Part shown: in pieces, positions 17,229-21,369 of the stretch
How positions within the stretch are numbered: position 1 is the first letter of the stretch
How the letters are laid out: every line of letters starts with the position of its first letter
From: an uncultured Candidatus Saccharibacteria bacterium
Lineage (GTDB): Bacteria; Patescibacteriota; Saccharimonadia; Saccharimonadales; JAGQNJ01
Length of the DNA stretch: 48,388 nt
Assembly (NCBI GenBank): GCA_964577565.1
Contig: CAZNZL010000004.1
Coordinates: forward strand, 1 to 48,388
Direction: 5' to 3'
Program-made: the position numbers and the translations under genes
Notes under the pieces: model-generated
Told to the model about the DNA's origin: nothing
What the model saw: only the letters and a program-made list of their open reading frames with translations
Database searches by the model: none

Positions 17229-18779
17229 TTACTTTTTAAGCTTAAGCCGTAGGCCGCTAAAGAAGTTCCCGATTTCTTGCCGATATTCGTACGCACCGTA
17301 GCCAAGACCGGCCACTGCTAGTAATCCAAAAATTGCATAGCCAACTGGTTGGGCGTTATTTTGAGCTTGCTCTTTGCTGCTGGTTGAAGCAGTAGATGCA
17401 CCGGCGACTTTGCGACACCGATTGGTTTCTGGGTTGCGCTCCTGGCCTGGCTCACAAGCTTTGAGCGAACTAGACGACGTAGCTACTTTTCGGCAACGGT
17501 TTGTTGCAGGGTTACGTTCTTGCCCGGGGCTACAGGGCTTTAAAGAGGTCAGGCCATCAGCATCTAGCTTTCTGCATCGATTCGTCTCTGGGTTTCTGAC
17601 CTGGCCTGGTTCACACGGCTTGAGCCCATCGTCTGTCTCAATATTTTTACACCGATTAGTCTCAGGATTACGGAATTTACCCTCGGGGCAGGGTTCGAGT
17701 GCTTCGTTTTTAGTATTTGCTGTCGTCACCGTTGCCGTAGCTACATTCGCTTTGCTAGGGGTAGGCGTCGTCGTAAGTTGCCATGAGCTACCAATATATG
17801 CCCAGGCTTCATCATCACTTAAATCGGCGGGGTAGGTAACGGCCTTCTCAGTTGTTGCACCAATAAGCTCCACCGTTCCCCCACTTGCATTTGGCAATAC
17901 TAGTCCATAAAAGGCCTGATACCCTGGCTGCATAGAGCCACTCAATTGCTTAGTACTCGACCCAATTTTTAATGAGCAACCATCGAGCACAACACTCGAA
18001 GCTAGTGGGTTGTAGAGCTCAACATATTCATTACCAGTGTCTGTGCCTGACGGGTTAGGCACAATCTCAGTTATCTCAAGCGCTTCACACGGCAAGACGG
18101 GTGTGTTTACTAGAAAACAGGCATCACCCTGCTGCTGATACCCGGCTGGCACGGTTGCTTGCACCCCCTCAAGGTTATTACATACATCATCCGTGGGATT
18201 TTCTGTTGGATCGTCTGACTTTATTGGGCTGTCTTCAAGCGTGAAATCTTCAAGATTATTATTGGTATCTATTGCATACCCCGCGCTATCAAACCACCGC
18301 TTAAGGCTCTTCGTATTGGGCGGGATTGCTGCCGGCTCGCCCTCAGCACATAGCGGCAGGCTTGTAGCGCTTCCCCAACCTACCACATCAATTACAGCCG
18401 AGTCAGAACGAAGCCGCAGGGAACCACCTGTATTGTCATTCATTGGTATTTCGACCACTTTTCGATCCTGGGGAGCCAGTATGCCGTCAAGCAGTGCCTC
18501 TTTTACATTGGTGCTGTCAACTTGCTTCCAGCTAACCACAGTGCAATCGGTAAGCTTTGCAGCGGGTTTTGCATATTCGAGGCGCCAGTTAGCAAGGTCT
18601 ATCTCATTATCACTATCGTTATAAATCTCTACAAACTCGGTTGGCTGGTTTGGAATTGCACCCCCAAGCTTTATGACCGTAATAAGTATAGTATTGTTTG
18701 TTTCAGCCCTCACTACTATCGGCACTAGTGCAGTCAGTAGTGTAATGATTAAGATTGATATTTTGACTCTCAACCCCAT
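17229..18779 (-). CDS. Surface protein with two lamin-tail-like domains, four Cys-rich repeats and C-terminal TM anchor
   Basis: Signal peptide; EFVEIYN..IDL..W.L and ITEIVPNP.G.D..EYVELYN; CxxGxxRNPxTNRC x4. Confidence 0.8.
   Translation of the reverse strand: MGLRVKISILIITLLTALVPIVVRAETNNTILITVIKLGGAIPNQPTEFVEIYNDSDNEIDLANWRLEYAKPAAKLTDCTVVSWKQVDSTNVKEALLDGILAPQDRKVVEIPMNDNTGGSLRLRSDSAVIDVVGWGSATSLPLCAEGEPAAIPPNTKSLKRWFDSAGYAIDTNNNLEDFTLEDSPIKSDDPTENPTDDVCNNLEGVQATVPAGYQQQGDACFLVNTPVLPCEALEITEIVPNPSGTDTGNEYVELYNPLASSVVLDGCSLKIGSSTKQLSGSMQPGYQAFYGLVLPNASGGTVELIGATTEKAVTYPADLSDDEAWAYIGSSWQLTTTPTPSKANVATATVTTANTKNEALEPCPEGKFRNPETNRCKNIETDDGLKPCEPGQVRNPETNRCRKLDADGLTSLKPCSPGQERNPATNRCRKVATSSSSLKACEPGQERNPETNRCRKVAGASTASTSSKEQAQNNAQPVGYAIFGLLAVAGLGYGAYEYRQEIGNFFSGLRLKLKK
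17405..17695 (-). repeat. Four intragenic C-x2-G-x2-RNP-x-TNRC repeats
   Basis: PCPEGKFRNPETNRC, PCEPGQVRNPETNRC, PCSPGQERNPATNRC, ACEPGQERNPETNRC. Confidence 0.9.
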
Positions 18780-18879
18780 AGATGAGGTTTAATATATACC
18801 TGTCTTTTTGATTTTCCAATAAATAAGGCACATATACCCTTAGTGTAGGTAGTGTATGATTAATGTTACAATTTATATT

Positions 18880-19338
18880 ATGTCCACACACCGCCATGAC
18901 GGGAATCTGTCTACCTATGACGAGTCCTGGAATCTATCCAAACCACACTTTATAGTTGATGGTCAGTTCAGCCTACCAGACATAGACAATTTTGAGGTCC
19001 ATATATACGACAATGTTAAATCAGGGCATATGAGTAGTAGTGTTAGTGAATTTGACGAACACCCTAGTATTTACTGGCTTATACCCCACGTTATTGCTCA
19101 GGGAAGGCATCACCAGTCAACATCAAAGCACCCCGACCACTTAGCTCGTCTAGCTCAAGGCCACACGGAGGTATATCAACTTGACAATATATACGAAAAG
19201 TTAGATAATGTTAGTTGGTCTGCAGTTAAACCCAATCATAGTATGGTTGTGCCCGTATTTTACCCTTATGATGGCAGACCAAATAAAGCTATTAGCTTTT
19301 ATATCGTGCCCAACCTTCATGGAAGGCAAATTGGATGA
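18880..19338 (+). CDS. IS passenger gene 1, hypothetical (possible toxin/nuclease)
   Basis: His-rich 152-aa ORF; TACAAT 7 nt before ATG 18880; overlaps next ORF (ATGA). Confidence 0.7.
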   Translation: MSTHRHDGNLSTYDESWNLSKPHFIVDGQFSLPDIDNFEVHIYDNVKSGHMSSSVSEFDEHPSIYWLIPHVIAQGRHHQSTSKHPDHLARLAQGHTEVYQLDNIYEKLDNVSWSAVKPNHSMVVPVFYPYDGRPNKAISFYIVPNLHGRQIG

Positions 19339-19622
19339 AAATGAATAAACTTTTAAAGAAACCCAACGACTGGCGTGTTGCGTATAGTCCATATGTCGAT
19401 ACTCTGCATGTTTATCGTGACTTGATAAACAAAAAATCAAAAGAGGAGCTTATAGATAAAGACTATGGAGACTATTTTATTATTTTTGAATCCGATACAC
19501 GTAAGCCACTTCTATTTGAAATGAAATCAGCATCGAGCATATTCGGTAAGATTGATAATATGGATAAAAAGACTATAATTCATAAGGTAGAAGGGTATAT
19601 CAAAAATCATGGACAGCAATAA
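19335..19622 (+). CDS. IS passenger gene 2, DUF2283-like protein
   Basis: YSPYVDTLHV...GDYFIIFE...PLLFEMKSAS resembles DUF2283 pattern (YD..aD.lYi...GiEi..AS). Confidence 0.6.
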   Translation: MKMNKLLKKPNDWRVAYSPYVDTLHVYRDLINKKSKEELIDKDYGDYFIIFESDTRKPLLFEMKSASSIFGKIDNMDKKTIIHKVEGYIKNHGQQ

Positions 19623-19872
19623 ACCAGTCAGAATAACAAACAGTATCCCCGCTATTGTTGCAGACGGACATGGTATTGGTATTAATAATGAGAACAGCGT
19701 TGCTAACCTATTATTCATACAAATAAACCCCAGTCAAAAACCAGAAACAGAATCAAAGGAACTAGAAGGTAGCGTCGTGTCTAATATCCGCCTAAGCCTA
19801 GAGCAACTAGAGAAATTGGGGGCAGATATTCAGAAAACGGTTGTAGACTTTAAGGCATCGAAAAAAAAATGA
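19609..19872 (+). CDS. IS passenger gene 3, DUF3467-like protein
   Basis: LLFIQ...VVSNIRLSLEQLEKL...IQKTV resembles DUF3467 pattern. Confidence 0.6.
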   Translation: MDSNKPVRITNSIPAIVADGHGIGINNENSVANLLFIQINPSQKPETESKELEGSVVSNIRLSLEQLEKLGADIQKTVVDFKASKKK

Positions 19873-19964
19873 ACAAAAAGGATAAACAGGGAAATTCACT
19901 ATCAAAAGATGAGTTCTTTAAGGTCTTGAAGAAGGTTTCTCGCAAGACGAAAAGCAAAAAGTAA
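19869..19964 (+). CDS. 31-aa basic small protein (IS passenger 4)
   Basis: MNKKDKQGNSLSKDEFFKVLKKVSRKTKSKK; ATGA overlap with previous stop; below ORF-track cutoff. Confidence 0.55.
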   Translation: MNKKDKQGNSLSKDEFFKVLKKVSRKTKSKK

Positions 19965-20028
19965 GGGTAAGCACAATTTTACAACACATAAACTATTGTC
20001 TCAGGGGTAGGCATGTGTATAATTATTC

Positions 20029-20184
20029 TTAATCGGGATGCGATCGCTCCTGAGGGACTGAGGCAAAGCAACAAGTTGAGATAGTGCCCTTCATTAGACC
20101 GAAGGAAAAAGTTTTTAAACGTTTATTCTGCACTATCGCCTCATAGCCACATTAGACCTAGGACTGTTAGAGCCTAGGTCTTTT
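20029..20184 (+). ncRNA. Predicted structured small RNA A
   Basis: TTGTCT-16-TATAAT at 19996-20023; stems TGAGGC/GCCTCA, GATAGTGC/GCACTATC, CCTTC/GAAGG; terminator AGACCTAGG/CCTAGGTCT-TTT. Confidence 0.55.
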
Positions 20185-20206
20185 GCGTTACCGAATTTTT
20201 ATACCA

Positions 20207-20305
20207 ACAAAAAACCCCACAATAAATGTAGGGTTGATTGCTTCTTAGACCGAAGGAAAAAGTGCAAGCACACTTCGGAAAGTATGCCGACAAGCTATGC
20301 TTGCT
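20207..20305 (-). ncRNA. Predicted small RNA B, partly antisense to RNA A
   Basis: TTGCAT-18-TATACT at 20340-20311; 5' hairpin; 19 nt complementary to 20094-20112; terminator AACCCTACA/TGTGGGGTT-TTTT. Confidence 0.55.
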
Positions 20306-20421
20306 CTACTAGTATATACACACAAAGTCCGCATATGCAAGCGACTTTATAACTTTTTGTTGACACTTATGCTATCTGTTAACAGGGGTAAAATTACTTA
20401 ACATGTAAACTAACGTATCGC

Positions 20422-21306
20422 TTATGGTTTTGCTACATTACCGAGTATAGACCAGAACATCGGTTGAAAGTCATTGCGGTGGCTATACCTAAATGCATAT
20501 TCATCTGCATAGGCTTGTAGATACTTTGGGTCTACATGGCGGTAAACACCCTTAATACCCCGTTTCATGTTTGACCATAGGTTCTCAACGTTCTGAGTAT
20601 GGGTTGTACCCCTCACATAGTCGCCCTGACTGTGGTTAATGGTCTTATGGGTGTAGCCTTGCCAGTATAAGTTTTTATAGACGCTGTACTGGTCTGTGTA
20701 GACCGTTGCATCCTTCATAGAAACGCTTGCCTCGATAAAAGGAAGCATAGCTCTATTAGTGGACTTACCGATATGTTTTACCTTGGCTTTGCCGTCACGT
20801 TGAACCACACCAATGATAGCTTCACCTTGGTGTTTCCAATTAGGGACTTTTGAACTTGCACGACGCCATTTAGGGTTTGGTCCTATGTATGCTTCATCAA
20901 TTTCGACGTCGCCAGTTAAATTAGTATCGTCATCATCAGCCATCATCTTTCTAATTTGGTGGAACATGCGCCATGCCGTCTTATACGTTACGCCTAGCTC
21001 TCGCTCTAACTGTTTTGCGGAGATCCCTGCACGGGTAGAAGCCATGAGATACACAGCATAGAACCATGATGTAAGAGGCGTTGTGGATTTATGGAAGATA
21101 GTGCCCGCTGTTGGGTGTACGTGATGACCGCACATTTCACATGACCAAGACTTACGGGTCTTCATTCTGTGGTGCGGGGTAATCTTTTTGTCTATCTTAC
21201 AGTAGATACCGTCTGGGTACAGATACTCTTTAAGCCACACTAAACACGCTTCCTCATCGGGGAAGTCGGCACGGAAGTCTGAGATAGTGTACTTCATCTG
21301 TTTCAT
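20422..21306 (-). CDS. IS1595-family DDE transposase
   Basis: N-terminal Zn ribbon (CEMC), TAGTIFH, GISAKQLERELGVTYKTAWRM HTH, VEIDEAY, YTDQY, HTQNVENLWS, YLQAYADEYAFRY. Confidence 0.95.
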   Translation of the reverse strand: MKQMKYTISDFRADFPDEEACLVWLKEYLYPDGIYCKIDKKITPHHRMKTRKSWSCEMCGHHVHPTAGTIFHKSTTPLTSWFYAVYLMASTRAGISAKQLERELGVTYKTAWRMFHQIRKMMADDDDTNLTGDVEIDEAYIGPNPKWRRASSKVPNWKHQGEAIIGVVQRDGKAKVKHIGKSTNRAMLPFIEASVSMKDATVYTDQYSVYKNLYWQGYTHKTINHSQGDYVRGTTHTQNVENLWSNMKRGIKGVYRHVDPKYLQAYADEYAFRYSHRNDFQPMFWSILGNVAKP

Positions 21307-21312
21307 ACTTCC

Positions 21313-21341
21313 ATTATACACCCCTGTTTACCTACTGTCAA
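21313..21341 (-). promoter_or_regulatory. Consensus promoter of transposase, -35 within TIR
   Basis: TTGACA-17 bp-TATAAT, 6 nt before ATG. Confidence 0.85.
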
Positions 21342-21369
21342 GGGATAAGTGCCATAAATAATGTAAATT

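Follow-up and report, generated by a model that had tools for sequence, protein, structure and literature searches.

The locus raises the question of what is encoded in a part of a mobile element that holds no long reading frame and carries the same 19 nucleotides twice. The window, the whole 48,388-nt stretch of DNA analysed here, is a contig (C4) of an 863-kb genome of an uncultured Candidatus Saccharibacteria bacterium (G000). It contains an IS1595-family element with a gap of 457 nt (19965-20421) between a 31-aa ORF and the stop codon of the transposase, in which no ORF of at least 60 aa is found. An initial sequence-only reading had placed two facing small-RNA genes in this gap. The element comprises the following features.

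18827..21353, no strand: IS1595-family element carrying the RNA pair (terminal inverted repeats and target duplication)
18827-18840 and 21340-21353: terminal inverted repeats of the element
18819-18826 / 21354-21361: 8-bp target duplication flanking the element
20422..21321, minus strand: IS1595 transposase, 299 aa (PF12762, E 4e-32)
18856..19872, plus strand: three cargo ORFs (160, 95 and 87 aa), outside the RNA module
19869..19964, plus strand: 31-aa basic ORF facing the transposase, frequent in this IS subfamily with the RNA pair present or absent

An ISXO2-like DDE transposase, terminal inverted repeats and a target duplication are all present, which places the vehicle in the IS1595 family; the closest named relatives of the transposase are mostly Candidatus Saccharibacteria records. 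We liken the vehicle to IS1595 elements with passenger genes, which we take to be those named 'transporter IS'. It shares with them the DDE transposase (PF12762), short terminal repeats, the 8-bp duplication and passengers, but one passenger here is a pair of predicted non-coding RNA genes, whereas the same slot in relatives holds unrelated protein genes (Fic, NYN, AAA_14/DUF4143, Replic_Relax) or ORFs without an assigned family. The three cargo ORFs gave no Pfam match over the cut-off. A motif like the 31-aa basic ORF occurs in L006-L009, L015, L016, L018, L023, L073 and L147, irrespective of the presence of the RNA pair, and was not found at the four pair loci outside an IS. A loose end at 21353, considered as a second insertion, was rejected, as it belongs to a different, related IS. 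The element lies about 50 nt before the start codon of a lamin-tail-domain protein with cysteine-rich repeats (17229-18779, minus strand). Several related IS1595 loci also deserve mention. The same slot in L008 (4877-5660) holds approximately 780 nt without a long ORF, with one 26-nt inverted repeat and no Rfam match, possibly another RNA cargo. A tRNA match (47 bits) lies just downstream of the transposase in L015 (2548-2618, minus strand), and in six more distant loci (L021, L026, L028, L031, L034 and L040) the transposase is followed by Replic_Relax genes, in three cases with a TrmB-like HTH protein.

The 19-mer, said in the sequence-only reading to occur exactly twice, once per unit, was indeed found at 20094-20112 and 20245-20263. 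Across 300 dinucleotide-shuffled versions of the gap, taken as 549 nt, the direct repeats reached at most 12 nt, and a repeat of at least 19 nt was present in 8 of 1567 genome windows of the same size, the one with the RNA pair included. Since both copies lie together on single contigs in two runs of one study, with no listed differences, the repeat is not a mis-assembly. A sediment run of another study covered most of unit A, with zero differences over 20052-20198. RNA data sets were absent from the sequencing runs listed for the locus, which carries no information on its expression. The predicted RNAs and their parts are listed below.

19996..20023, plus strand: promoter-like site of RNA A (10/12)
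20030..20184, plus strand: predicted RNA A, ~155 nt, with 5' hairpin, three-way junction, target domain and terminator (folding)
20033..20053, plus strand: 5' hairpin of A, the apex of which carries an 8-nt palindrome (20040-20047)
20059..20143, plus strand: long stem around the target domain of A, in which 20059-20064 and 20080-20087 pair with 20130-20143 (folding)
20089..20112, plus strand: target site in A (sequence match and folding)
20154..20184, plus strand: terminator-like hairpin of A with four U (folding; unlisted by the terminator scanner)
20311..20340, minus strand: promoter-like site of B (8/12)
20209..20306, minus strand: predicted RNA B, ~98 nt (folding)
20264..20304, minus strand: 5' scaffold of B, conserved and predicted to adopt either of two folds (folding and alignment)
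20241..20263, minus strand: variable guide of B, complementary to 20089-20112 (sequence)
20207..20235, minus strand: terminator of B (listed by the terminator scanner)

The proposed promoter-terminator units stood in part: the promoter of A and the terminator of B are on the scanner lists, while the promoter of B and the four-U terminator of A are on neither. Both units fold significantly better than shuffled sequences (z -4.06 for A, 20030-20187; z -4.76 for B, 20305-20205; 0/200 shuffles as good in each case). An addition to the earlier reading is that the pairing in the window reaches 23 bp with one bulge (20089-20112 with 20263-20241). Identity with an already known RNA family, which would have spoken against a new pair, was not seen in Rfam: the best score in the window was 29 bits against a gathering threshold of 41 (Trp_leader, over B and its terminator), and the seven homologous loci were without a match in Rfam 15 at E 0.05.

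These seven loci come from six genomes of four other Saccharimonadales families and from one metagenome contig, so that eight loci, the window included, represent five families plus the metagenome contig. Order-wide BLAST of 401 genomes gave matches in 14, three of which were true (G000, G649 and G521), and 11 short matches were dropped; L042 matched over the entire pair (73% identity, behind an IS1595 transposase) and L043 over the 5' part of B only. A metagenome scan with the B scaffold pattern returned 68 loci, of which one was true (L073) and 67 were dropped as chance. Covariance models of B yielded three true matches among 151 genomes of family f3, one of them previously found (L146 and L147 added), one among 150 genomes of family f2 (L167) and L159 in a class sample of 151 genomes, in which no true match came from other orders. 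In small families, true matches were found in 0/7, 0/26, 1/6 and 1/31 genomes, the last two previously found. Weak covariance-model matches (L148, L149, L152-L154, L156, L160-L166 and L168) were rejected, since they lack the scaffold and represent tRNAs, terminators or coding sequence. In 401 genomes searched by BLAST across the phylum, only one terminator-like match was obtained besides G000, and the module was not found in phage and plasmid collections. Among the Saccharimonadales genomes searched, about 1-2% carry it. None of the conclusions drawn here depends on the unpublished genomes G660 and G686.

In all eight loci, a site complementary to the guide lies at most 420 nt from B, inside a unit with a promoter-like site and a terminator hairpin. 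The search did not select for this partner site, because six of the seven homologues were matched through B only. The duplex between guide and target comprises 19-23 bp and starts at the first base past the B scaffold (8/8). Two pairs of loci share a guide, which leaves six independent guide types with 6-12 of 18 nt in common. Over the first 18 duplex positions there are zero non-pairs, and 15 of these positions show at least two Watson-Crick pair types; where guide and target differ by a single substitution (three cases), the pair is always G·U, and 1-nt bulges occur in three loci. Matching duplexes were calculated at -31 to -37 kcal/mol versus -9 to -23 kcal/mol for non-matching combinations of guide and A. 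Five loci are convergent (direct repeat in the DNA) and three tandem (inverted repeat); that the linkage is kept through this switch fits pairing in trans of two transcripts. The co-variation check proposed along with the two-RNA reading was passed, guide and target co-varying over the six types, and we regard the pairing of A and B itself as very probable. As judged from the sequences, both partners appear to be non-coding (no conserved ORF, significant folding), and the co-varying 19-23-bp complementarity in 8/8 loci would provide the antisense pairing expected of the type VIII class.

RNA B is 95-99 nt long across the loci and consists of the 5' scaffold, the guide and the terminator, with a promoter-like site (7-10/12) 4-6 nt before it in 8/8 loci. 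The scaffold (~42 nt, 60-91% identity) is the most conserved part of the pair. It can form either two short hairpins or one long stem, the two folds lying within 2 kcal/mol of each other in 6/6 copies tested. In an alignment of seven sequences, pairing reaches 98.7% in the two-hairpin fold and 95.7% in the long stem, with two compensatory columns each, and one scaffold position changes in all three strands together. The compensatory support for both folds that these seven related sequences lend is modest; the scaffold might perhaps act as a two-state timer.

RNA A is less uniform (135-156 nt). A promoter-like site precedes it in 8/8 loci (7-11/12) and the terminator hairpin is present in the free fold in 8/8. 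Three elements recur in the predicted folds: the 5' hairpin, the terminator and, enclosing the target domain, a long stem with interruptions. In the window, the predicted target consists of the loop (20093-20100) and the purine-rich 3' arm (20101-20105) of a small hairpin, followed by a 7-nt single-stranded flank leading into another small hairpin (20111-20120). In most copies the target likewise consists of loop and purine-rich 3' arm, and the second hairpin begins at the last two bases of the target in 7/8 free folds. The purine-rich arm is found in 8/8 copies, with purines at 8-11 of the last 12 nt of the target. Folding z-scores are -3.1 or better in six of the eight copies and -0.6 and -1.9 in the other two. 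The apex of the 5' hairpin carries a palindrome of at least 6 nt in 7/8 loci versus 11.6% of 1024 shuffled apexes, a feature spotted post hoc. It is a possible self-dimerisation site, reminiscent of the kissing-loop dimer signals in retroviral RNAs.

Identity between A copies (51-76%) is close to the aligner background. A covariance model built from two copies did not detect the other six significantly (best true match E 0.52), and its top match (L025, E 9e-4) skips the target domain. Homology of A therefore rests on position, shared architecture and short motifs, and is less firmly shown than that of B. An attenuator role for A was rejected, since the loci have no common downstream gene and the A terminator is predicted with or without B. 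Two further observations concern the surroundings of A. An extra ORF-poor, hairpin-like stretch between unit A and the small basic ORF in L042 (1900-2010) is perhaps a third RNA, and in L073 the 5' ends of B and A are alike (1140-1156 versus 1408-1424; 17 nt, 76%), a faint hint of common origin.

The sequences show two units, linked in 8/8 loci, with a matched and co-varying guide and target and no conserved ORF. For such a pair, the reading we favour, with a probability of roughly 45%, is an RNA-only addiction (toxin-antitoxin) module: A would be a toxic, structured RNA that B neutralises through strand invasion, and swapping of guides would set up specificity groups. A is favoured as the toxin and B as the antidote because the pair shows traits of addiction modules, namely a scattered distribution, transport as IS cargo, strict linkage and rapid joint change of guide and target. 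The same IS slot holding Fic, NYN and AAA_14 genes in relatives and the one non-IS copy of the pair adjoining a Fic/Doc gene count in its favour. Two other non-IS copies sit among ordinary-looking chromosomal genes, and of 26 neighbouring proteins scanned, 11 had a Pfam match, six of these to Replic_Relax, which is not a defence family. Several points count against the addiction reading: the B scaffold shows higher conservation than the supposed toxin A, which is surprising; the model built from two A copies missed the other six; two A copies have folds barely better than those of shuffled sequences; and an RNA-DNA hybrid would tolerate G·U pairs too.

In the proposed mechanism, the guide of B, which folding predicts to be mostly unpaired where it lies between scaffold and terminator, would first pair with the exposed loop and flank in the target hairpin region of A and then displace this hairpin and the next one. 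The resulting A:B duplex of about 20 bp would be a plausible substrate of RNase III, which was found in four of the five carrier genomes searched. Free A would be harmful, and the simplest route would be a block of translation initiation by its purine-rich Shine-Dalgarno-like arm, which B would cover; this mode of harm is a guess by analogy with the RNA toxin CreT. AAGGA or AGGAG precedes approximately 12% of 483 crudely called starts in the host. In the G000 assembly, 16S rRNA motifs were not found and ARAGORN gave no tmRNA, both genes being probably unassembled or divergent. B is assumed to be shorter-lived than A, perhaps timed by its two-state scaffold, so that cells losing or silencing the module would be poisoned by A. 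A joint swap of guide and target would let a new copy escape the resident antidote, and IS1595 would be one vehicle and not the regulated target. That all this amounts to a stand-alone, protein-free addiction family of Patescibacteria, with a structured, possibly self-dimerising RNA toxin and an antidote of scaffold and swappable guide, in at least six orthogonal versions and with no Cas, Hfq or peptide, is a more tentative proposal, which we hold to be possible.

Among RNA-only systems, SdsR/RyeA of enterobacteria (type VIII; PMC8610362) is similar in that it likewise consists of two small RNAs, one of which is here predicted to neutralise the other by antisense pairing. Those RNAs are described there as encoded on opposite strands of one locus, which makes their complementarity automatic, whereas the present units do not overlap and their match is maintained by co-evolution. 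No sequence or Rfam likeness to SdsR/RyeA was seen, no host mRNA targets were detected and Hfq was not found in the carriers searched. In an alternative with reversed roles, B would be the effector, an SdsR-like antisense RNA that blocks ribosome-binding sites of the host with its pyrimidine-rich guide, and A would be the antidote in the form of a structured sponge. The high conservation of the B scaffold and the purine-rich targets would suit this alternative, as would one 17/19 match to the target in the host, at the 3' end of an ORF that we take to be mscL-like (G000:C2:164708-164726). We nevertheless consider it unlikely. Against 710 host start regions the window's guide performed no better than shuffled guides (3/25 as good), and searches allowing up to 3 mismatches gave no third match in G521 or in the other genome that has the same guide; the single host match was accordingly rejected as a target and is probably due to chance. 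Moreover, the guides are too divergent to hold a fixed host target, and Hfq was not found in 5/5 carrier genomes (91-99% complete).

Alternatively, B might be an activating key, the binding of which opens the target domain of A and switches on a two-part device, such as a ribozyme, a scaffold for proteins or an RNA that self-assembles by dimerisation at the palindromic loop of A. The two-state scaffold, the guide beginning exactly where the scaffold ends and the palindromic apex of A are in line with such a device. We find it doubtful, as no catalytic or known motif was found in the Rfam scans and no guide-using protein family in the five carriers (Cas1, Cas12f/TnpB, OrfB and Piwi were searched for), while the fast turnover of guides is more easily explained by addiction specificity.

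The sequence-only reading had likened the locus to the par system (RNA I/Fst and RNA II) of the Enterococcus faecalis plasmid pAD1, and this likeness is partial: the convergent layout with a direct repeat was found in five of the eight loci. In PMC7472228, par is described with convergent promoters and complementarity via a direct repeat read oppositely, with a purine-rich site kept in a small hairpin until the antisense RNA binds and with repeats that differ between systems; the repeat sites are poorly conserved, give specificity and prevent cross-rescue. The locus differs from par in other respects: the present pair has a single 19-23-nt site where par, according to the same text, has two (DRa and DRb), separate terminators 20-36 nt apart in the convergent loci instead of a shared bidirectional one, and in three of the eight loci a tandem layout with an inverted repeat. 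Fst or another conserved peptide is also lacking. That RNA A has no Fst-like hydrophobic ORF, as the earlier reading had said, was borne out in all eight A copies, among which no ORF is conserved in length, frame or sequence. In the window, besides a 7-codon ORF, a 20-codon GTG ORF crosses the target, and it is not conserved.

These data bear on a third alternative, namely that A is a mini-mRNA for a type I or CreT-like toxin, the ribosome-binding site of which is masked by B as RNA II does in par. Its purine-rich arm lies in a small hairpin, like the 5'-SL of par (PMC7472228), and an AUG or GUG is found 4 or 8 nt before the 3' end of the target in five of the eight loci. With no start codon at that place in the window, L042 and L159 and no conserved or hydrophobic Fst-like peptide found, there is rather little to recommend it. 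The likeness to CreTA lies, by the account in PMC10097628, in a small non-coding RNA toxin with a Shine-Dalgarno-like sequence and hairpins, which served as the model for A toxicity, and in an antidote made of a conserved 5' part and a variable guide. CreT is stated there to need a Shine-Dalgarno site, a start codon and a hairpin, and since the start codon is present in the target of only five of the eight A copies, a CreT-like mode does not fit all of them. Furthermore, CreA guides a Cas complex to a promoter (PMC10097628), whereas the target of B lies inside the A transcript, Cas1 and TnpB were not found in the five carriers and B has no CRISPR-like repeats.

Derivation from, or action on, a phage RNA immunity system like that of P4 CI, with B directed against a phage leader or A serving as a decoy, is very improbable. 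P4 CI RNA does pair with separate, non-overlapping complementary sites (seqA and seqC), as set out in PMC4825925. In that account, CI is released by cleavage of the very leader that it controls and brings about early termination ahead of the replication genes, while B has its own promoter-like site, the A terminator is predicted irrespective of B and no common gene follows A. Exact matches in viral contigs were absent for three guides, and the one match of the window's guide lies in a contig without a sign of the module. Two scaffold scans of viral sequences gave 14 and 2 matches, none of which is a homologue.

Control of IS1595 transposition by the two RNAs, another role put forward in the sequence-only reading, was not supported and has next to no likelihood. 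In four of the eight loci the pair immediately follows an IS1595 transposase and its orientation is constant, which would agree with such control. The other four have no transposase or terminal repeat in contexts of 20, 20, 5.5 and 2.2 kb, the latter two being whole short contigs, and this makes the pair mobile cargo and not a transposition control. The B model found no B in 47 other fetched IS loci (approximately 34 of them IS1595), and the guide is without a match in the transposase region. Finally, a DNA feature (a protein site, a recombination scar or chance) with incidental folds hardly comes into consideration, because, despite exact repeats of at least 19 nt in seven other windows, the repeat is replaced wholesale between loci without losing its match, is direct or inverted according to gene orientation and deviates only by G·U or 1-nt bulges.

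The A/B pair is a real, undescribed two-RNA module, which resembles par and the type VIII systems in its predicted working but lacks the Fst peptide and shared terminator of par and the gene overlap of SdsR/RyeA. To our knowledge, small-RNA regulation in Saccharibacteria is little studied. The literature search, which covered mostly open-access titles and abstracts, gave no description of such an RNA pair. The same literature describes few RNA-only toxin-antitoxin systems (SdsR/RyeA and the Cas-dependent CreTA) and, as far as these sources go, none for Patescibacteria. If A is toxic, the module would add a structured RNA toxin and a protein-independent antidote with rewritable specificity to these systems; even if A is non-toxic, the co-variation defines two undescribed bacterial RNAs. 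The set of pairs represents natural orthogonal RNA-RNA switches of approximately 400 bp, which could serve as selection or control parts in Saccharibacteria.
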